Source: a virus
Reading direction: 5' to 3' (one strand)
Length of the DNA: 31,886 nucleotides
Virus record (IMG/VR): IMGVR_UViG_3300045988_006552
Coordinates: 1-31,886 of that record
Shown here: piece by piece, positions 460-31,886 of the stretch
How positions within the stretch are numbered: position 1 is the stretch's first letter
How the letters are laid out: every line of letters begins with the position of its first letter
Notes under the pieces: model-generated
Database searches by the model: none
Told to the model about the DNA's origin: nothing
Seen by the model: only the letters and a program-made list of their open reading frames with translations
Position numbers and translations under genes: made by a program

Positions 460-1170
460 TCACTCTTCCTCGGCGTCCCTCCTTGCTATCTCGATGATCT
501 TGGATACCGCAGCGGCCATATTCTTGATTCCGTTACGTGAAGCGAACTCCGTCACCTGATGAACGAACTCGTCGTACAATTCCATAGGCACCAACCCGAG
601 CATGTCCGCGTTGCAATCATCCACGAACTGTTCAAGTTCCTCGTATTCGCGGGTCAGAAACAAAAACTCAACGGTCTTATATTCGTACTTCACATTCAAA
701 CCGTTCAGGTTGACCTGCTGCGGTTCCACATGTGGAAGATTATCCTGATCGAGTCCGCTCAACAACAAATCGTCCACGCTATCCATTTGCGTCACCAATT
801 GTGCCAACAGCTTTTCATCTGCATGGCCGGTGAGTTCGTTGGCGGCAATCTGCTTAGCCGTTATGGTTGAACGTGTCATAGGTTTCGTGTCCACGATAAC
901 CGGGATACGTTGGATACCGGCGCGGGCGGCAGCTCTTGTACGATGATGGCCGGAAACGATGCTTATCGGCCCTTCTCCGTTCGGTTGCGAACAGTACGGC
1001 AATGACTCCAGCATCCCTCGTAGCTTGATGTTCTGTGTCAGAGCGTCGAACTTACGCGGTTCCATGACTTGCGCGTTCAGGTCTTGTTCCTTGAGGTTTA
1101 CCACGTCAACCCATTTGATTACCAAACCGTCTGCTATGGTCATTTCTTGCGACGTGTCGATATCAGACAT
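460..1170 (-). CDS. ParB N-terminal (ParB/Srx nuclease-like) domain protein
   Basis: Motif ISIVSGHHRTRAAARAGIQRIPVIV. I chose the ATG at 1170 (RBS GGAGGA 5 nt upstream; TAATG overlap with the upstream gene) over the ORF-track start at 1239. Confidence 0.7.
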   Translation of the reverse strand: MSDIDTSQEMTIADGLVIKWVDVVNLKEQDLNAQVMEPRKFDALTQNIKLRGMLESLPYCSQPNGEGPISIVSGHHRTRAAARAGIQRIPVIVDTKPMTRSTITAKQIAANELTGHADEKLLAQLVTQMDSVDDLLLSGLDQDNLPHVEPQQVNLNGLNVKYEYKTVEFLFLTREYEELEQFVDDCNADMLGLVPMELYDEFVHQVTEFASRNGIKNMAAAVSKIIEIARRDAEEE

Positions 1171-2576
1171 TATTTCCTCCTGTTCTCCTTGGCTAGGAAC
1201 TGTCCGAGAATGTTCCTTAAGCCGATTTCGTCGTGCCAAGCGCTCTTATACTGCAATTGGTACTGTCCGTTCTTACGGTCGCGTCTGTCCAGCTTCATCA
1301 GGCCGCGAAGTCCCTTCGCTTCTGGGTATCGCGTGTACTCGACGGTTGCCAGCGCATCGCATGAATCGATGATGATCTGCGACTTTGGCGTAGCGCAGAG
1401 CTGGAACGTGGAACGACGTAACGCTATCATCGTGACCAGCTTCGTAAGCCGATACCGTTCGTGGGATACCCCGAACGCTTGACGCAATACCGCGTAGTGA
1501 CTCTTGTACATAAAGTTCGGCAAGCCATAGCCGATGATCCCTGCAACGTAACCGTCGATTAGTACGAGAACACACATGGGACTTACGTTTCCTGATATCC
1601 GATGCCGCATGACTTGCAGGTACGAATCTTGGGCCGCGCTATCGTGCAACGGTACGACCTCGATTTTAGAACGTTCGGTAATCGGATGATCTCTCGGTAA
1701 TATCGGTATAGGTATATCCGCCGATTTCGAAGACGCCACAGTCACCATGTTCCCGCCGACAAGACGTTTGACCTCGTTCGGACGGTTGGAATTCATGTAA
1801 ATCACACTGTCAAGCCCAAGACGCCTAGCATATACCGGGCTGGCCGTCGCAGCGTTCCCGGGCGTTTGCTGTTGCTGGCAGACAAGCAGCGCCTTACGTC
1901 CATCGAACATTTTGCAGAGCTTGGGGATATCGACGGGAGCGTTGAATACGTTGTATTCAGGTTCCGCCCATTGGAATCTACCACCGGTGTCGAAGAACTT
2001 TTCATAAGCGCCCGGATACGTAGGAGGATTTGCGAACACGATGGTGTTCGGGTCGTCCATGATGCGTTCCGCGTATTTCATCGGGTCGGTGGCCTCGTAT
2101 CTCAGCCCCTCAAGTCTGACCATATTCGCTGCGATTCGTTCCCGTAACTGTCCGACGTGTTCCGAATCGTTGATGTCAAGATCGGCCAGAAGTTCACGGT
2201 AGTAATCGACATCTTCGTGCTTGCTGAGCCGCATACGGTATTGCGCCATGATTACGGTAGCCGCATCGTCCGCCGCGTTTCCGGAGAGAGGTAGTGGTGC
2301 ATCGTCAACCGTCGCCTGCATTTCGGTGAGAGGCTTACCGCTGTACGCATATCCGAGCGCTGCGGTGTACGCCCACACGTCGCACGCTTCGATCTGTTCC
2401 GGTTTCCAGCCGTTCTCTATGGCGACCATGCAGTTTGCGAAGGCTCCGGCGTACAGTTCGACGTATCGCGTATACCCTGATGCGAGTGCCTGCCTGAACA
2501 GATTCCCGTTCCAATCGCGTTCGGGTTTATCCCAAGTGTTGAGGAACAGGATGGACGGTGAGTTGAAACCTGCCAT
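1170..2576 (-). CDS. putative Dam-like (alpha-class) DNA N6-adenine methyltransferase with an uncharacterised C-terminal region of about 200 aa
   Basis: N-terminal YVELYAGAFANCMV (motif I-like) and VFANPPTYPG (motif IV-like, non-canonical NPP-T-Y). The start is set at the ATG at 2576 because the longer ORF (to 2624) would run through the tRNA gene. Confidence 0.55.
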   Translation of the reverse strand: MAGFNSPSILFLNTWDKPERDWNGNLFRQALASGYTRYVELYAGAFANCMVAIENGWKPEQIEACDVWAYTAALGYAYSGKPLTEMQATVDDAPLPLSGNAADDAATVIMAQYRMRLSKHEDVDYYRELLADLDINDSEHVGQLRERIAANMVRLEGLRYEATDPMKYAERIMDDPNTIVFANPPTYPGAYEKFFDTGGRFQWAEPEYNVFNAPVDIPKLCKMFDGRKALLVCQQQQTPGNAATASPVYARRLGLDSVIYMNSNRPNEVKRLVGGNMVTVASSKSADIPIPILPRDHPITERSKIEVVPLHDSAAQDSYLQVMRHRISGNVSPMCVLVLIDGYVAGIIGYGLPNFMYKSHYAVLRQAFGVSHERYRLTKLVTMIALRRSTFQLCATPKSQIIIDSCDALATVEYTRYPEAKGLRGLMKLDRRDRKNGQYQLQYKSAWHDEIGLRNILGQFLAKENRRK

Positions 2577-2660: not shown

Positions 2661-3059
2661 TCAGAATAGCACATTTTGGTCGGCCTCCAAACCTTTTTGT
2701 AATTCCTTGACTTCTTCACCGGTCTTTTCCTGCCACCATTGGGCGAAAATCGTCCGGTGGCACAAGCATTTGCTTACGTCATCGAAGCATAGAAGCACGA
2801 TGTCTTTTCCGCTGTTGAGTTGCGATATTGTTTCAAGTTCCGTTCTGATGCGAGCGACCCCGTGCGAGTCCAGCATGGAACGATACCGTTCGGTGAATTC
2901 TTCGTCTGTTCCTTCCATGAACCATCGGCCCGGCGTTACTGTTTTCGCCGATGCTGCGATCGTGTATGGCAGACGCCATCGTGGCGAACCGTATGTTATG
3001 CGTACCGGTATGCCTTGTGCCGGGGTGAAGTCGCGGTATCGGTTTGTGTAGATCTTCAT
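2661..3059 (-). CDS. DUF488 family protein
   Basis: Pattern KIYT..YR....PV.IT.G.PRW.LPY...P..W, then IVLLCF.D...CHR..FA.WW.E.TGEEV.EL, typical of DUF488. Start at the ATG at 3059 (MKIYT). Confidence 0.6.
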   Translation of the reverse strand: MKIYTNRYRDFTPAQGIPVRITYGSPRWRLPYTIAASAKTVTPGRWFMEGTDEEFTERYRSMLDSHGVARIRTELETISQLNSGKDIVLLCFDDVSKCLCHRTIFAQWWQEKTGEEVKELQKGLEADQNVLF

Positions 3060-3080
3060 GTGTATCCTTTCTATGCAATG

Positions 3081-3122
3081 TGTGATATACATATTATATC
3101 ACATTGTTGGTTCTTGTTGCAA
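3081..3122 (-). promoter_or_regulatory. early promoter PB with 23-bp palindromic operator (tgtgatata-catat-tatatcaca, 3081..3103)
   Basis: On the minus strand: TTGCAA (3122..3117), 18-nt spacer, TGATATAAT (-10 = 3098..3093). It lies in the 3' end of the initiator gene. Confidence 0.6.
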
Positions 3123-18564: not shown

Positions 18565-19458
18565 ATGGCTATCTTCACTCTTGACCCGCGCGACGTTCGT
18601 CTGACCCTGAACGGGTTCCCCTTGTATGGGACTGACCAGTACGGGTGCGAGTGGCATGTGACGTTCCAGAACGTGTCAGGCCTATTCGACGGGGTGGGTT
18701 CGACCTTGCAGACCAATGATAAAGCGTGGTCGGACGGTTGGTTTAGCAATATTCCCGTGGCTCATGGCCGTTCGATCGCTATTGAGGGTCATATCATCGG
18801 CAAATGCACGGAAAACTGCATCAACGCTTGGGACGCGTTCAAACGCTCGTTCAACATCACAAGTCAGTCACTGATTGTTAAGTTGGGGAATATCAGCCGT
18901 CAGGTGCAGGTCATGCAATCGTCTTCCGCTCCATTGGTGGAGTGGGCTGGCGTCAACATTCTCAAATTCAGCATCGGCCTGACCGCTTTGGACTCGTATC
19001 TGTACGATACGCAGTCGGTGAACGGGAATACTGGTCTGCCAAACAGTCAGGGCTGTATGACGTTCCCCTATCATTTCGAGGACATCGATACGGGCAAGGG
19101 GTCTACATGGGTGTGGTCTGAAACAACCGTGTCGGGTAGCGTGTCCCTCACGAACACGGGTAGTGCTCCGAGTCCGGTGGCTATTCGTATCGATGGGCCT
19201 GTGGTCAATCCACAGGTTGAGCATAGCCCAAGCGGGCACATCATGGCGTTCGATATCACGTTGGGTATGGGTCATTACATTCTTATCAACGGTGCCACGC
19301 ATGAGATTCTTATCGATGGCACGGATCCGGCGCGTGGCAGTGTGACCCGACGTGAATGGAGCTACGCGCAGGTCGGTGAGAATATTTGGATGTTCAGCGC
19401 CGAGGAACCATCGGATAACGCGCGTATGACGGTCACATTCAATCCGGCTTACATTTAA
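18565..19458 (+). CDS. distal tail protein (Dit-like)
   Basis: First gene after the tape measure gene; size about 300 aa. Confidence 0.6.
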   Translation: MAIFTLDPRDVRLTLNGFPLYGTDQYGCEWHVTFQNVSGLFDGVGSTLQTNDKAWSDGWFSNIPVAHGRSIAIEGHIIGKCTENCINAWDAFKRSFNITSQSLIVKLGNISRQVQVMQSSSAPLVEWAGVNILKFSIGLTALDSYLYDTQSVNGNTGLPNSQGCMTFPYHFEDIDTGKGSTWVWSETTVSGSVSLTNTGSAPSPVAIRIDGPVVNPQVEHSPSGHIMAFDITLGMGHYILINGATHEILIDGTDPARGSVTRREWSYAQVGENIWMFSAEEPSDNARMTVTFNPAYI

Positions 19459-22958: not shown

Positions 22959-24116
22959 ATGGCTCTGAACGGTATCGACATCAGCAATTGGCAGGCTGGT
23001 ATCGACTTGTCTGCCGTACCGTGTGATTTCGTCATCAGCAAGGCGACGGAGGGATGCTGGTACGTGTCCGAGGATTGCGCTCGTCAGGTGGAGCAGGCGT
23101 TGAGTCTGGGAAAATGCGTTGGCGTATACCATTACGCCAACGGCGGTAACGCCGTCTCCGAAGCTGACTATTTCGTGAACAATTGCGCGAATTGGGTCGG
23201 CAAGGTCGTATGGTGCTTGGACTGGGAGGCACAGGGTAACGGACTGTTCGGGTCTGGCGCGTCCGCTCAACAGTGGATTAGGTCGTTCTGCGACCGCGTG
23301 TACGAGCGTACAGGCTCCCAGCCTATCGTCTACGTGCAAGCGTCCATGCTTAACGACGTGCAGAACATTGGTGATCGTGGGTTGTGGATCGCGCAGTACG
23401 CGGACATGAACGCTATTGGGTATCAGGATACGCCGTGGAACGAGGGCGCGTATGGGTGCGCGATCCGACAGTATTCGTCTAATGGTCGTCTGCCCGGATA
23501 TTCAGGCGGTCTTGACCTTGACAAGTTCTATGGTGATGTGAATGCTTGGAACGCTTATAAGGCGGGTCATTCGAGTGTGACCAACGCGCCGACACCTTCC
23601 GCTCCTGCTCCTTCCACTCCCGCATCCGGCACGTATACTGTGCGCTCCGGTGACACGCTGAGCGGTATCGCGTCGATGTATGGGACTAGCTGGCAGGCGT
23701 TGGCGCAGATCAATAATCTGTCTGACCCGAATCTGATTTATCCGGGTCAGGTGTTGAAAATCAACGGTACTGCCAATAATGTGCAGTCCGGTAGCTGCAC
23801 GTATACGGTTCAGTCGGGGGACACGTTGAGTGGTATCGCCGCTAAGTATGGTACTTCGTGGCAGACTCTCCAGCAGCTTAACGGCATTGCCAACCCGAAT
23901 CTGATCTATCCCGGTCAGGTGTTGAAGCTGCCGGGCGAAGCACCGTCACCGTCACCGTCACCGTCACCGTCCGTTACGACGTACACTATCCAGCCCGGTG
24001 ACACATTGAGTGGTATCGCCGCCCAGTACGGTACCAGTGTTTCCAGTCTGGTGGCGTTGAACGGTATCGCCAACCCTGACGTGATCTACGCTGGCCAGAC
24101 TATCCGTATCAAGTAG
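22959..24116 (+). CDS. endolysin: GH25 muramidase plus three LysM repeats
   Basis: [26 protein letters not shown]...VGVYHY (GH25). Three copies of [17 protein letters not shown]...N......LIYPGQVL (LysM). RBS AGGAGG, then ATG at 22959. Confidence 0.9.
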
Positions 24117-24137
24117 ACTATTCGAAGGAGGTTTCTT

Positions 24138-24413
24138 ATGGACATGAATACTGGTGAGCCGACCAAGGACACCGCGATCAATAACGAGGTGCCGGACGGT
24201 AATGATGATTATGTGCCTACGTTCAACGCCGCGACTCGAAGGTGGGCGTATCTGGTTTCCGGTCTGGTCGGTATCGTCGGCGCGGTGTTGAGTTTCGTGA
24301 GCGCCGTGCCGGACGCGCCGTCTTGGGTGGCCGTGATGGGTGGCGCTTTCGCTCTGGTCGGCTCCGGCGTGGCGGGAATGTTCGGCGTCCACTACGCAGG
24401 CATTTCCAAGTGA
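24138..24413 (+). CDS. holin candidate (91 aa, two TM helices)
   Basis: RBS AAGGAGG. TM helices WAYLVSGLVGIVGAVLSFVSAV and WVAVMGGAFALVGSGVAGMFGV. Confidence 0.55.
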   Translation: MDMNTGEPTKDTAINNEVPDGNDDYVPTFNAATRRWAYLVSGLVGIVGAVLSFVSAVPDAPSWVAVMGGAFALVGSGVAGMFGVHYAGISK

Positions 24414-24422
24414 GGTAAATAA

Positions 24423-25910
24423 ATGACAATCGCATCCGACTTGTTCCGCACCGTCAAGATCAACGATATCAGTCAGTAGCTCCCGTATATTGTTGTCAAT
24501 CAGGCGGACGATAACGGCAAAATCATTCGTTTCGTCCCAATTGATCACGGGCAGAAGGTCACTGGGTTCACTGGCGCTCGCCTGTATTATCCACCGCGAT
24601 CTGACGCCCAGTATGGTGATTACGTGACCGGTGTCGAGTCTGACGGTGCTTGGGACTTCACGATTCCAGTGGGAGTCTTGAGTGTGGGACGGGTCGGGTG
24701 CAATCTCGCTTTCATTGATGGGGATGGCGAAACGTATTCCCGTAATGTCGTGTTTTTGGTCGAACCGGCGGTGTCTGGGGTTTCGACCCGCAGGACGGTC
24801 AGCAGACTCGTTTGGACAAGGTTGTCGGCACCGTGCAGAATGTCGCGGATACGGCTATCGACAGCATCAACAAGACCGCTAGTGACGCGGTGGAGAACAT
24901 CGGTAAGGCCGAGGAATCCATTAACGAGAGTGTGACGGAGGCGCGTGGTTCCGCTGATGCCGCCGCGAACAGCGCCACACAGGCGGCTTCTTCCGCCAGC
25001 GCTGCTCAAACCAGTGAACGGAACGCCGCCAATAGTGCCACGCAAGCCTCGCAGTCCGCCACAGCGGCGAAACAGAGCGAGACTAATGCTGCGTCGAGCG
25101 CACAGACCGCAGCGTCGAGTGAACGTAACGCCGCGTCTAACGCCGAACAGGCGGCGGATAGTGCGAGCAAGGCCGGTGAGAGTGCGTCCGCTGCGGGAGT
25201 CTCGGAGCGTAACGCCGCTTCGAGTGCTGTTCAGGCCGCTCAGAGCGCCACAGCGGCAGCACAATCCGCTTCCGAGGCCCAGAATGCCGTGGAGGGTTTC
25301 GGCTTGAAGGCCGGTACGACGATCACGGGCGAACCCGGAAGCGATGCCGCGGTCTCTATCTCCAAACAGGGGACGAAGTATGTAGCTGATTTCACCATTC
25401 CACGAGGCACGCAAGGCATACAAGGCCTCAAGGGAGACCCCGGCGAACTGTGTCGCATGATGACACTTTAGATGGAGATGGAACTAATTCCAGTCCATTG
25501 AAAGTCGTAAAACACCGGGAGTAACATTATATAAAGGATGGCAAGACCCAGCTGAGATCGGAACTGATCTAAACAACGGTGACCTTTGGTTAAAAACGCC
25601 ACGCTATTTAACCGACATCGACCCGGACAATCAGACCGAAGGCGCATCGACCGCTGAATACTACACGTATGCTCAGGGAGCGGCGAACAATTCACCAAGT
25701 GTGCTTGTGCGAACCGGTCAGATCATCACAGACATGTTTGAATACTCGAATGGCGTATGGTGGTCGCTTATCTGGCGAGTGGATTCGAGTCTAACCCCGG
25801 GCAAGGAGACGACTCAGGTTGCGGCGGCGCGCACGTTGTCCGATACTGAATTGCTTACTCGCATCGAAGCGCTTGAAGCGGAAGTGAAAAGTCTGAAAGG
25901 AGCTGAATAA
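24423..25910 (+). pseudogene. BppU-like tail fibre / baseplate upper protein gene, disrupted (or recoded): one in-frame TAG and three -1 frame changes
   Basis: Collinear pieces: ATG 24423 to TAG 24477..24479; the same frame continues to about 24780 (BppU_N-like); the -1 frame runs to about 25443 (Ala/Ser coiled coil plus G-X-Y triplets); the next -1 frame covers about 25447..25521 (TVSHDDTLDGDGTNSSPLKV); the next -1 frame covers about 25512..25910. Confidence 0.65.
24812..25471 (+). CDS. largest intact fragment of the disrupted fibre gene (coiled-coil plus collagen-like G-X-Y region)
   Basis: Track ORF 24812..25471. Repeats of the SERNAA.SA.QA.QSATAA type end in GTQGIQGLKGDPG. The track's first codon is TTG with no convincing RBS, so this is probably not an independent gene. 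Confidence 0.4.
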   Translation: MDKVVGTVQNVADTAIDSINKTASDAVENIGKAEESINESVTEARGSADAAANSATQAASSASAAQTSERNAANSATQASQSATAAKQSETNAASSAQTAASSERNAASNAEQAADSASKAGESASAAGVSERNAASSAVQAAQSATAAAQSASEAQNAVEGFGLKAGTTITGEPGSDAAVSISKQGTKYVADFTIPRGTQGIQGLKGDPGELCRMMTL

Positions 25911-26374
25911 TGAATAAATTCATAACGAATTATACTTCCGTAAAAGAATTTAAAGGACTCTCTACTCCTGCTACAGTGGTAACAGAAATTGACACTCCTT
26001 ACGGTAAAGGTCACAGATTTACAAGTGGTGGGCCTAACTGGCAGTGGGCTTATATAAAGATTAACTCATTCTTAAATTCAGGTGTTTTGCGATTTATTGC
26101 ACGAGCTAGCGTAGATTGTTTATTAAATATTCATAATGATCAAAATAAAATTGGTCAATTAAGTATTACAACTGATTGGTCGGTAATTGAATCTGAAGTT
26201 TTAAAAAAACCTGATAAAATTATTTCGTTTTACGGACTTGATGAAGGAGTATGGGTCGATATCTGTGATGCCGTCGTTTTGTCAGACCGTGACAGCTTGA
26301 ATCAACTCGATGCCATCAATGTGCCGATTTTCAAAGCCGATACCATGCCAATCTCAATCAACCAAGGAGCATAA
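25910..26374 (+). CDS. hypothetical protein; the N-terminal two thirds are encoded by a low-GC segment (receptor-binding/carbohydrate-binding candidate by context)
   Basis: TAATG overlap with the fibre gene end. ORF track 154 aa. Confidence 0.55.
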   Translation: MNKFITNYTSVKEFKGLSTPATVVTEIDTPYGKGHRFTSGGPNWQWAYIKINSFLNSGVLRFIARASVDCLLNIHNDQNKIGQLSITTDWSVIESEVLKKPDKIISFYGLDEGVWVDICDAVVLSDRDSLNQLDAINVPIFKADTMPISINQGA

Positions 26375-26377
26375 CCA

Positions 26378-26803
26378 ATGTTTGAAACCGTACAGACCAT
26401 CATCAACGGAGGCGATTATAACCTCACAGACCTCATCCAGCGCATCAAGACCCTGTATGCGATTGGCGAGCTGTCTGATGATGAGATGAAGCAGCTCCTC
26501 GAACAGGCGCAGGCGAACGCCAAGCCCGACGATTCCTACGCCCCGTTGGCCGACCGTGTGAAGGCAATCGAGGAATGGGAGACGACAATCGAGGAACGTT
26601 TAAGCAAGCTGGAAACCGGCTCATCGACTGAACCCACGGAACCAACAGACAAGTGGCCGGAATACAAGCAGCCGACGGGCGCGCACGACGCCTATCATGT
26701 GGGAGACAAAATCACTTACAACGGCAAACACTATACGTGCTTGATGGACGGTTGCGTGTGGACTCCAGACGCTTACCCGCAGGGATGGCGTGAGGAAGCA
26801 TAA
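26378..26803 (+). CDS. hypothetical protein with a C-terminal CBM5/12-like carbohydrate-binding motif
   Basis: C-terminal WPEYKQPTGAHDAYHVGDKITYNGKHYTCLMDGCVWTPDAYPQGW. RBS AAGGAG upstream. Confidence 0.5.
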   Translation: MFETVQTIINGGDYNLTDLIQRIKTLYAIGELSDDEMKQLLEQAQANAKPDDSYAPLADRVKAIEEWETTIEERLSKLETGSSTEPTEPTDKWPEYKQPTGAHDAYHVGDKITYNGKHYTCLMDGCVWTPDAYPQGWREEA

Positions 26804-26880
26804 GCCACATCTACACTGGTGTTTCCCAGTGGTAGACTGGTGTTGCTCCTTTCGAGCGATGGTGTGATGACCAAATGAAT

Positions 26881-26931
26881 TAGCCCGGCACTGGTCTTGA
26901 TGACTAGTGCCGGGCTATTCTTTCTTTTTTT
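26881..26931 (+). terminator. rho-independent terminator at the convergence of the late (+) and early (-) blocks
   Basis: tagcccggcactggtc - ttgat - gactagtgccgggcta, a 16-bp stem with one G-U pair, followed by ttctttcttttttt. Confidence 0.75.
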
Positions 26932-27934: not shown

Positions 27935-27975
27935 TGTGATATATAAATTATATCACATTGTTTGTGTTTCGCCAA
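27935..27975 (-). promoter_or_regulatory. early promoter PC with 23-bp palindromic operator (tgtgatata-taaat-tatatcaca, 27935..27957)
   Basis: On the minus strand: TTGGCG (27975..27970), 17 nt, TGATATAAT (-10 = 27952..27947). Confidence 0.6.
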
Positions 27976-28231
27976 ACAGCTCACTAATGGCTTCACGCCC
28001 GGCGTCGGTCAACGCGAACCGCCAGCAATGACGATGCCGACTGTTCACACCCTCACGATCGACACGGCACACATGACCGGAGCGCTCAAGCTCGATCATG
28101 CGCGACCTCAAGCCCTGCGGAGTGTCGTCATACTTCGCTAAGACCGCCATCCGTTCGATTTCCTCGTGGGTCAGCGGTCGTTTCGCCATCCAAAGAATCA
28201 GCAGCACATGCACCTGTTGTTCGCTGAACAT
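27953..28231 (-). CDS. winged-helix (MarR/PadR-like) DNA-binding protein
   Basis: LILWMAKRPLTHEEIERMA....LRSRMIELERSGHVCRV. TAATG overlap with the upstream gene. Confidence 0.5.
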   Translation of the reverse strand: MFSEQQVHVLLILWMAKRPLTHEEIERMAVLAKYDDTPQGLRSRMIELERSGHVCRVDREGVNSRHRHCWRFALTDAGREAISELFGETQTM

Positions 28232-28596
28232 TACGCCACCGCCGTTTCAGCGGAGTGGCGGAGGAACGCGGCCACGCCAGCAGCCACGATCCACCCGGCA
28301 ACCCACTTGATTCCGAACCGTACCCTGTTGATCTTGGCTGCCATCGCCCACACCGGAAGCGACACCCACGGGCTAAGACACCAGCCACAGTAGGCGAGTT
28401 CGCCAAGACTATCCACGTAATCCTTCGCCCATGTTGGCAGCGAACTTGGAAGATTTTCGGTCTTTACGGTCAGCTTGTGGCGGAACGCTGAGAACACGTA
28501 GCCGGGGCCGGGCGAGAGCTGCACGACGGTGGTCGCGTATCCAGCCGTGATTCCAGCGGAAAGCACCGCGGTCCACCAATTGCCATCAGTTTTCAT
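28231..28596 (-). CDS. membrane protein (DUF1360-like)
   Basis: ELAYCGWCLSPWVSLPVWAMA motif plus flanking hydrophobic segments. Confidence 0.5.
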   Translation of the reverse strand: MKTDGNWWTAVLSAGITAGYATTVVQLSPGPGYVFSAFRHKLTVKTENLPSSLPTWAKDYVDSLGELAYCGWCLSPWVSLPVWAMAAKINRVRFGIKWVAGWIVAAGVAAFLRHSAETAVA

Positions 28597-28925
28597 CGGT
28601 CTTCCTTTTCCTTGTGGCGACGCCAGCAGTTATACCGCTTGTCATAATCCGCGTACATGGTTTCGTAAAGATGCTTTGCCTCTTTGGTGGCTTCCTCGTA
28701 TTCAAACCCGTGGTGTTCCAAGACGTATTGCGCGGCACCGACCCAGACGGAGCGGCGAACGTGTTGATACCAGCGGTCGAACAGTTTGCCACACGTCTTG
28801 TCGTGTTTGTCGTCTCCGAGGAAGTCGGCAACGCTCTCCACCACGAATGTACGCAACGAGTTCACCGTGATACGGTTACGGTCGAACAGCTCCAGCACAT
28901 CATTGGTCAAAGTATCAGGCTTCAT
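28593..28925 (-). CDS. hypothetical protein (110 aa)
   Basis: ORF track; overlapping start and stop signals with both neighbours. Confidence 0.55.
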   Translation of the reverse strand: MKPDTLTNDVLELFDRNRITVNSLRTFVVESVADFLGDDKHDKTCGKLFDRWYQHVRRSVWVGAAQYVLEHHGFEYEEATKEAKHLYETMYADYDKRYNCWRRHKEKEDR

Positions 28926-31770: not shown

Positions 31771-31811
31771 CCTGATATATCCATTATATCACATGTTGTG
31801 TGATATTACAA
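31771..31811 (-). promoter_or_regulatory. early promoter PD with 23-bp operator (cctgatata-tccat-tatatcaca, 31771..31793)
   Basis: On the minus strand: TTGTAA (31811..31806), 17 nt, TGATATAAT (-10 = 31788..31783). Confidence 0.55.
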
Positions 31812-31831
31812 ACTGATGTCTGTATTTCTCA

Positions 31832-31886
31832 TCACTCCGCAAGCAGTTCGGAAACCGCATTGTCAAACTCTTCGGATAACAGCCAA
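31832..31886. repeat. 55-bp terminal overlap identical to 1..55 (circular-contig signature)
   Basis: Direct comparison of both ends: tcactccgcaagcagttcggaaaccgcattgtcaaactcttcggataacagccaa. Confidence 0.95.

Follow-up and report, generated by a model that had tools for sequence, protein, structure and literature searches.

Organization of the locus

The window analysed here is the whole of IMG/VR virus record IMGVR_UViG_3300045988_006552, a stretch of 31,886 nt whose 55-nt terminal direct repeat indicates a circular assembly of a 31,831-bp genome. Positions 24423–25910 hold a fibre gene that follows the endolysin and holin genes and is spread over four frame segments in five pieces (Table 1). 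Three-frame translation of 24423–25913 reads these pieces as one protein, 496 aa long when conceptually repaired. The gene starts with an ATG 8 nt after a GAGG (Shine–Dalgarno) motif that overlaps the holin stop; 18 codons are read before the in-frame TAG. At the other end, its TAA stop and the ATG of the following gene overlap (TAATG). Beyond the TAG, no in-frame start codon occurs before a GTG at 24624, so no useful N-terminal fibre product can arise.

The fibre gene sits 5 kb from the Dit gene, outside the Dit/Tal module. The principal genes of the tail tip, all intact, encode Dit, a 386-aa protein, an S74-like chaperone-domain protein, and a 301-aa protein. In relatives, the holin-like gene usually adjoins the gene for the CBM (CBM_5_12) protein directly.

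Table 1. Coordinates of the fibre pseudogene, its neighbours, and the Dit gene in the window
Feature	Position	Strand	Remarks
Dit	18565..19458		intact
Endolysin, GH25 and three LysM repeats	22959..24116	+	intact, upstream; 385-aa call in identical contig
Holin-like gene, 91 aa	24138..24413	+	intact
Fibre pseudogene, piece 1	24423..24479	+	start codon, MTIASD..DISQ, TAG at 24477-24479; relatives TVTVK..DISQQLPY
Fibre pseudogene, piece 2	24480..24783	+	frame unchanged; LPYIVVN..EPAVSGV; BppU_N-like, predicted all-beta N-terminal domain; ends at T3 24781-24783
Fibre pseudogene, piece 3	24784..25446	+	frame -1; (G)FDPQDG..GLKGDPG; ends at 7-nt deletion 25446/25447
Fibre pseudogene, piece 4	25447..25512	+	frame -1 again; TVSHDDTLDGDGTNSSPLKVVK, conserved shaft-to-head junction motif; ends at A4 25509-25512
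Fibre pseudogene, piece 5	25513..25910	+	frame -1 again; TPGVTLYKGW..KSLKGAE; C-terminal head domain and terminal coiled coil
154-aa ORF	25910..26374	+	intact; low GC (about 34-36%)
141-aa coiled-coil and CBM_5_12 protein	26378..26803	+	intact

The intact orthologue and the lesions

The repaired protein has 438 matches in a large protein collection. The best is P0001 (499 aa, 84% identity over 99% of the query), which is encoded as a single ORF on L001, a 32.5-kb Logan contig of SRR5866558. The gene order of L001 is that of the window: endolysin, 91-aa holin, fibre, 154-aa ORF, CBM_5_12 protein, and leftward arm. In tblastn, P0001 matches the four frame segments of the window in order, at 73–93% identity, and a five-piece collinearity of this kind is far beyond chance. 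The earlier note, made from the letters of the window, had proposed five collinear pieces of one fibre of about 495 aa; three-frame translation and tblastn with P0001 confirm this, and the closest relative indeed carries the gene as one ORF. Intact single-ORF orthologues are also present in L003, L010, and L013, which places the gene in a functional family.

The lesions were defined by DNA alignment to L001 and by a 20-genome alignment of the first 560 nt. One lesion, absent from the earlier list of four, is in frame: one unit of a tandem ACCGTC-ACCGTC repeat is lost at about 24450–24455 (6 nt; TVTVK to TVK). The nonsense codon at 24477 was read correctly before, and it replaces a Gln codon that is CAA or CAG in relatives. 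The first shift is borne out near 24780, as proposed; its site is not the GGGG run named earlier but the adjoining T run, where T4 has become T3 at 24781–24783 (GGnGTTTTC in relatives, GGGGTTTC in the window). The second shift is borne out as well, and the slip in a CCCC run to which it had been ascribed is replaced by a 7-nt deletion between 25446 and 25447 (L001 GGCGACTTGACGACTGTG, window GGCGAACTGTG). The third lies where it had been placed, in the A run at 25509–25512, which is A5 in L001 and A4 in the window (TAAAAAC to TAAAAC). A further 1-nt A-run difference between the window and L001, just upstream of the stop, changes the last residues only (KRS* vs KGAE*). All four deletions (6, 1, 7, and 1 nt) are of the replication-slippage type.

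Nature of the encoded protein

Profile searches bear out the assignment of the repaired protein as a fibre. PHROG tail-fibre families match its Ala/Ser shaft (phrog_3279, tail fiber, E 6e-22), and a PDB profile search finds the T5 L-shaped fibre 8hqz (E 7e-4), on the low-complexity Ala/Ser shaft. Besides this helical Ala/Ser-rich shaft, piece 3 contains a short beta segment and the Gly-X-Y stretch GTQGIQGLKGDPG. The repaired protein matches no Pfam family at E <= 0.1, BppU_N included.

An AlphaFold model was built on the intact orthologue P0001 from a 39-sequence alignment; its overall confidence is modest (mean pLDDT 56). It predicts an all-beta N-domain at residues about 25–116 (pLDDT about 50–84 in 10-residue blocks), followed by helices at 132–294. 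In a Foldseek search of the PDB with this model, the eight best matches are all BppU of phage TP901-1: chains of 4v96 at E 2e-6 to 2e-5, and the isolated BppU N-domain 3uh8 at E 2.5e-4, with a TM score of 0.55 over 118 columns. The description of the N-terminal region as BppU_N-like therefore stands at the level of predicted fold and fails at the level of the Pfam HMM. The comparison supports a common fold for the modelled N-terminal domain and that of TP901-1 ORF48. In TP901-1, the N-terminal domain of BppU docks the protein on the tail-tip Dit ring. By analogy, the N-domain of the present fibre might dock on the Dit ring as well, and the model suggests that the product would be attached to the virion. 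Judged from the orthologues, the intact protein comprises a BppU-like N-domain, a long helical shaft rich in Ala/Ser, a short collagen-like stretch bearing the HDDTLxGDGT junction motif, and an exchangeable C-terminal head.

Restriction of the damage to the fibre gene

All window reference genes that were tested are full length against the relatives' loci in tblastn, and the portal (695 aa), tape measure (682 aa), and capsid (610 aa) of the window are intact. When the whole window is compared with the ORFs of relatives, breaks inside genes are supported at about 24780 only, plus 25450 and 25510 through L001; other frame-change signals cluster at gene boundaries. Flags raised on the endolysin have two sources: LysM-repeat alignments that overrun the stop, and an upstream GTG start that makes the ORF over-long; identical contigs call a protein of 385 aa from 22959. 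The stop-codon part of this comparison, made with all six-frame ORFs of relatives, was too noisy to use, and its frameshift part and the reference-gene tests are relied on here.

A control set points the same way. Among about 700 instances of 16 other genes, from 66 portal-anchored relatives in the same data sets, there are one in-frame stop and no frameshifts. The earlier remark that the other long genes are intact and the damage specific to this gene is borne out by the reference-gene tests and the control instances. The DNA identity of the fibre gene to its nearest relatives, about 90–91%, equals that of neighbouring genes, which speaks against hypermutation; the substitution rate is not visibly raised, and this explanation was rejected.

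Distribution and damage across the phage family

The presence of the gene was surveyed by an IMG/VR scan anchored on the holin, which is unbiased regarding the fibre and yielded 73 loci. The fibre N-domain is present in 18 of the 73, and the gene is absent from about 52 of the 70 that could be assessed, roughly three quarters. At about 43 loci the CBM gene follows within about 50–65 nt of the holin with no fibre between them; at nine further loci without a fibre, the CBM gene is missing too. A gene carried by 18 of 73 relatives is optional and dispensable.

Carriers number 20 when the 18 IMG/VR genomes are counted together with L001 and the window. Five to six of these are judged intact (L001, L003, L010, L013, and, with a short form, L006 and L015), and 14 are damaged, in different ways, by TAG, TAA, or TGA stops, +1 or -1 indels, or large deletions. 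Nonsense codons occur at various sites (L004, L005, L008, L009, L012, L014, L017, and the window), +1 insertions in L018 and L019, other frameshifts in L002, L005, L011, L012, and L016, and deletions that fuse a fibre remnant to the CBM gene in L007 and L008. Several lesions in one allele are found in L005, L008, and L012.

Two coincidences are recorded separately. The nonsense codon of the window (TAG) falls at the position of a TAA in the diverged genome L005, and L004 and L017 both have TAG at one codon despite 81–89% identity nearby; both are unexplained.

Most relatives in the comparison come from one IMG data set (3300045988). Off-frame tails or late starts also occur in about 12–18 of the best 120 homologues in the databases (from Logan and ENA), so the damage pattern extends beyond a single data set.

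Two phages of Bifidobacterium asteroides, BlindUri1 and BlindBasel1, are the closest in culture, at only 49% portal identity. Two GTDB genome scans, one queried with the fibre N-part and the other with the endolysin, yielded generic LysM matches and no prophage relative that would point to the host of the family. Among cultured phages, tblastn gives no match to the fibre N-domain and, for the head domain, a single weak match to an unannotated faecal contig; a near-identity DNA search of GenBank phages with 24100–26900 gives no match, and a protein scan of JGI metagenomes gives none to the head domain.

Selection, timing, and module exchange

Across the family, the 100 codons of the fibre N-domain are under strong purifying selection (median dN/dS 0.064). 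The N-domain of the window, with a dN/dS of 0.07 against relatives, is not an outlier; a value at the family median implies that inactivation was recent relative to the divergence of the genomes (dS 0.3–0.6).

The C-terminal part has a different history. The head type of the window is seen only in the window and in L001, and the 154-aa ORF is found only alongside this head. Against L001, the head has a dS of 0.038, a dN of 0.033, and a dN/dS of 0.86, and the 154-aa ORF a dN/dS of 2.5. Both lie at dS 0.04–0.05 from L001, as against 0.41 for Dit, and this much greater closeness indicates a recently shared, exchanged module. The fibre gene as a whole is a recombination mosaic across the family. 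Mechanisms of programmed variation were considered and rejected: no convincing inverted repeats bracket the gene and Pfam detects no invertase or integrase in the ORFs examined, as a shufflon would require, nor is any reverse transcriptase domain of a diversity-generating retroelement detected by Pfam in the ORFs examined.

Authenticity of the lesions

Exact-protein look-ups with the 154-aa ORF and a 219-aa fragment ORF gave three further assemblies with the identical broken sequence. A Logan contig of run ERR414306 (L021) is 100% identical to the window over 2.9 kb. A MEGAHIT contig (L022; record name ERR414306.PRJEB5224...human.gut.metagenome) is 99.99% identical over 11.3 kb, and contig ULXA01041093.1 of NCBI assembly GCA_900524525.1 (L020/L023) is 99.99% identical over 9.3 kb. 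Each includes every lesion within its coverage. At least two of the three (Logan and MEGAHIT) come from the one human-gut run ERR414306, and the sample of GCA_900524525.1 is unstated. Four assemblies made by different programs give one sequence, which makes an assembler artefact very unlikely. Exact-pattern searches of IMG/VR and JGI metagenomes did not find the lesion junctions.

Probable inactivation of the gene and competing explanations

The stretch 24423–25910 is very probably a pseudogene, recently inactivated, whose parent was an optional accessory gene for a tail fibre or receptor-binding protein. Decay of such an accessory gene was the first explanation listed in the earlier note, and it is supported by the intact orthologues, the absence of the gene from about three quarters of relatives, the independent breaks, and the recurrence of the lesions in several assemblies. 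The gene has taken on a nonsense substitution together with four slippage-type deletions (6, 1, 7, and 1 nt). With these lesions, translation halts at codon 19 without yielding a fibre; the tail module keeps its main adsorption genes intact, so the phage should still be viable.

A minor share of probability goes to a consensus that merges co-existing haplotypes. The lesions would then be real and lie on different variants, an intact or singly hit allele might co-exist, and the five-piece gene would overstate the damage in any single genome. The lesion combination is read from assembly consensus sequences and not from reads; the lesions at 24477, 24782, and 25446 lie 300–660 nt apart, beyond k-mer phasing (55–127), and the mosaic structure of the gene across the family fits co-existing variants. 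The assemblies disagree at one site within the gene (SNP 25566, G/A), which indicates some heterogeneity, with at least two variants among these assemblies. Against merging, the four assemblies agree on the lesion combination although their assemblers differ, the 7-nt and A-run lesions, 64 nt apart, are joined in the 100% identical Logan contig, and the multi-lesion alleles of three relatives show that such combinations also occur elsewhere.

Sequencing or assembly errors in an intact gene are a still weaker candidate, and a quite improbable one. In its favour, two of the lesions remove a single nucleotide from a short homopolymer (T4, A5), a classic error of some platforms. Against it, both fall in the fibre gene, to which just 10 of the 227 homopolymer runs (at least 4 bases) in the window belong; the rest of the 31.9 kb is unaffected although it holds the other 217. 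The remaining lesions (the TAG and the 6-nt and 7-nt deletions) are not homopolymer changes. Moreover, the ERR414306 contigs come from short-read k-mer assemblers, several assemblers agree, and relatives share the gene-specific pattern while the control genes are essentially clean.

Programmed recoding, in which read-through or reassignment of the TAG and three -1 ribosomal frameshifts would yield a full-length fibre, had been ranked least likely and can be set aside almost entirely on the shift sites, the frame of relatives, the tRNA content, and the mixed stops: the pieces are perfectly collinear and all three shifts are -1, as recoding would have it, yet no zero-frame X XXY YYZ heptamer is present at TCT GGG GTT TCG, GGC GAA CTG TGT, or GTA AAA CAC, the first site is read in a single frame in L001 and 18 IMG/VR relatives and the second and third in L001, the only relative with the head type of the window, and four low-efficiency events in series would be expected to give a negligible yield. 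Reassignment of TAG to Gln, the residue of relatives at this position, was likewise rejected: the window's genes hold this one in-frame stop only, the window encodes no suppressor tRNA and only a tRNA-Arg(tcg), and in relatives in-frame TAG, TAA, and TGA at unrelated codons replace Q, Y, L, G, and R, which excludes codon reassignment.

Accepting the gene as a recently inactivated pseudogene, the cause of its loss is a separate matter. It is conceivable, though doubtful, that the loss is not passive decay but recurrently selected, the fibre being kept over the long term and repeatedly knocked out within individual guts. Such a course would comprise a constrained N-domain (dN/dS about 0.06), heads swapped by recombination, and then repeated knock-out; fast or mis-targeted adsorption might be costly in a dense community, or the fibre might trigger host defence. 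Five lesions alongside few N-domain amino-acid changes are somewhat above a simple neutral clock, with numbers too small to reject it. Neutral decay after a host change and positive selection for loss are not separated by the evidence here; two features lean somewhat toward fluctuating selection, namely that the N-domain has been constrained over the long term and that lesions are concentrated in single genomes.

Relation to known fibres

Laboratory phage lambda offers the closest parallel. Ur-lambda carries an intact side tail fibre gene, stf, which a frameshift divides in the laboratory strain lambda PaPa (Hendrix and Duda 1992, as cited in PMC12617516); with this frameshift, laboratory lambda lost its side tail fibres and kept its viability (PMC12617516). 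Adsorption is accelerated by side fibres, and in dense, structured, biofilm-like habitats such speed can lower fitness (PMC2762979). The side fibres of T5 are dispensable accessory fibres as well (PMC12617516). In both lambda and the window, a non-essential accessory fibre gene of a siphophage carries small frameshifting damage while the central adsorption apparatus is intact, and the present locus may be regarded as a natural analogue of the laboratory stf frameshift. There are also differences. The loss described here occurs in natural gut metagenomes, whereas that of lambda belongs to laboratory stocks, and many lineages have undergone it independently, frequently through several lesions or deletion of the whole gene. 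The present gene follows the lysis cassette instead of lying within the tail module, and it has no sequence similarity to Stf.

The likeness to BppU (ORF48) of TP901-1 (3uh8, 4v96; PF10651) consists of the predicted all-beta N-domain followed by a long helical segment, and may point to a shared tail-tip docking role. Sequence identity is 13–19%, and the Pfam family is not matched at the threshold given above. In TP901-1 the receptor-binding trimers held by BppU are a separate protein, BppL; in the present fibre the head is part of the same chain, and the fibre gene lies apart from the Dit/Tal module. With T5 pb1 (8hqz) and PHROG 3279 the protein has in common an Ala/Ser-rich helical shaft; this likeness is confined to the low-complexity shaft, and the N-terminal and head domains are unrelated.

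Significance

The locus is a further case of a known phenomenon, the pseudogenised accessory fibre, to which a family-wide, gene-specific, and recurrent loss adds weight. For annotation, a single label, fibre pseudogene, should cover all five fragments, in place of four to five small hypothetical ORFs or a recoded gene. The family to which the window belongs comprises abundant, uncultured human-gut siphophages of about 30–33 kb, in which one optional adhesin gene is gained, swapped, broken, and deleted far faster than any other gene. If its loss is selected rather than neutral, the family would offer a natural, source–sink counterpart of the transition from Ur-lambda to lambda PaPa and a testable case of adsorption speed or host range traded against fitness where the habitat is dense; the fibre would then be a variable host-range determinant to examine when these phages are brought into culture.

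Genome ends, completeness and relatives

The first 55 nt of the window are repeated exactly at its end (1-55 = 31832-31886), a terminal direct repeat, and the window is a complete, circularly assembled genome of 31,831 bp. No integrase was detected among the window ORFs scanned. Among the IMG/VR relatives, loci L184-L197 form a second clade from the same data sets, with portal identity of about 74% and genomes of similar size (29-30.7 kb).

Gene content and candidate regulatory elements

Near the left end lies a gene set that includes a phage DAM-like methylase domain fused to a phage GNAT-like domain (PF22555 + PF22559). This fusion adjoins two further genes, one for a ParB_N protein and one for a DUF488 protein, and the set is suggestive of base modification or hypermodification of the DNA. 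Two kinds of intergenic element were recorded as well. A hairpin separates the late arm, which reads rightward, from the convergent leftward arm, and is likely a bidirectional terminator; a 41-nt repeat in the leftward arm, with an internal palindrome (TGATATAT..ATTATATCA), is a candidate operator or promoter element. Also on the leftward strand, ORFs of relatives, more than 100 in number, switch frame relative to the window at the junction of two small genes (~28590), where an indel polymorphism changes how one of the genes ends at its C-terminus and how it overlaps the next one.

Features of the window and counterpart positions in relatives
Feature	Location	Strand	Details
Putative DNA-modification gene set	window 460-1239, 1170-2624, 2661-3092	-	
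Fibre-gene stop, first pair	L004 10766; L017 8927		both TAG, in ..SSAE*AANIV
Fibre-gene stop, second pair	window 24477; L005 9874		TAG and TAA, at DISQ*LPY
154-aa ORF	window 25910-26374; L001 8381-8845	+ (window)	
Hairpin	window 26881-26917		16-nt stem, 5-nt loop, 94% complementary; TAGCCCGGCACTGGTC / GACTAGTGCCGGGCTA
41-nt repeat	window 27937-27977; 31773-31813		two copies, 76% identical; both intergenic
Small leftward genes	window 28231-28596; 28593-28925	-	

Variation of the fibre gene

A common short form of the fibre gene encodes about 210-311 aa, and is represented by three IMG/VR loci (L006, L015 and L016) together with the homologous proteins P0095-P0120. Its terminal domain is similar to the CBM_5_12 protein's C-terminus (..ERVFYAYPYPPDPGCCVIEYPAFLGYNGNTGVYINLETEE). 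A second fibre gene, with the N-terminus MADISTG, comes next; in L015 this second gene is a 70-aa in-frame fusion with the CBM C-terminus.

In two pairs of diverged genomes (L004/L017 and the window/L005), an in-frame stop occupies the same fibre-gene codon; near their common TAG, L004 and L017 are just 81-89% identical. Such coincident stops could be chance events at mutable Gln codons, the product of a short recombination tract, or stops that are tolerated.

A possibly diversifying ORF downstream of the fibre gene

The 154-aa ORF downstream of the fibre gene is confined to the two genomes having this fibre head type, the window and L001 (the Logan contig with an intact fibre orthologue), and has no match in Pfam or PHROG. 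Its GC content is ~34-36%, against 54% for the genome, and the two copies differ by ~41 non-synonymous and ~5 synonymous changes (dN/dS ~2.5). It may have been acquired horizontally and may be diversifying fast as a partner of the fibre head, e.g. as an assembly factor or as another adhesin.
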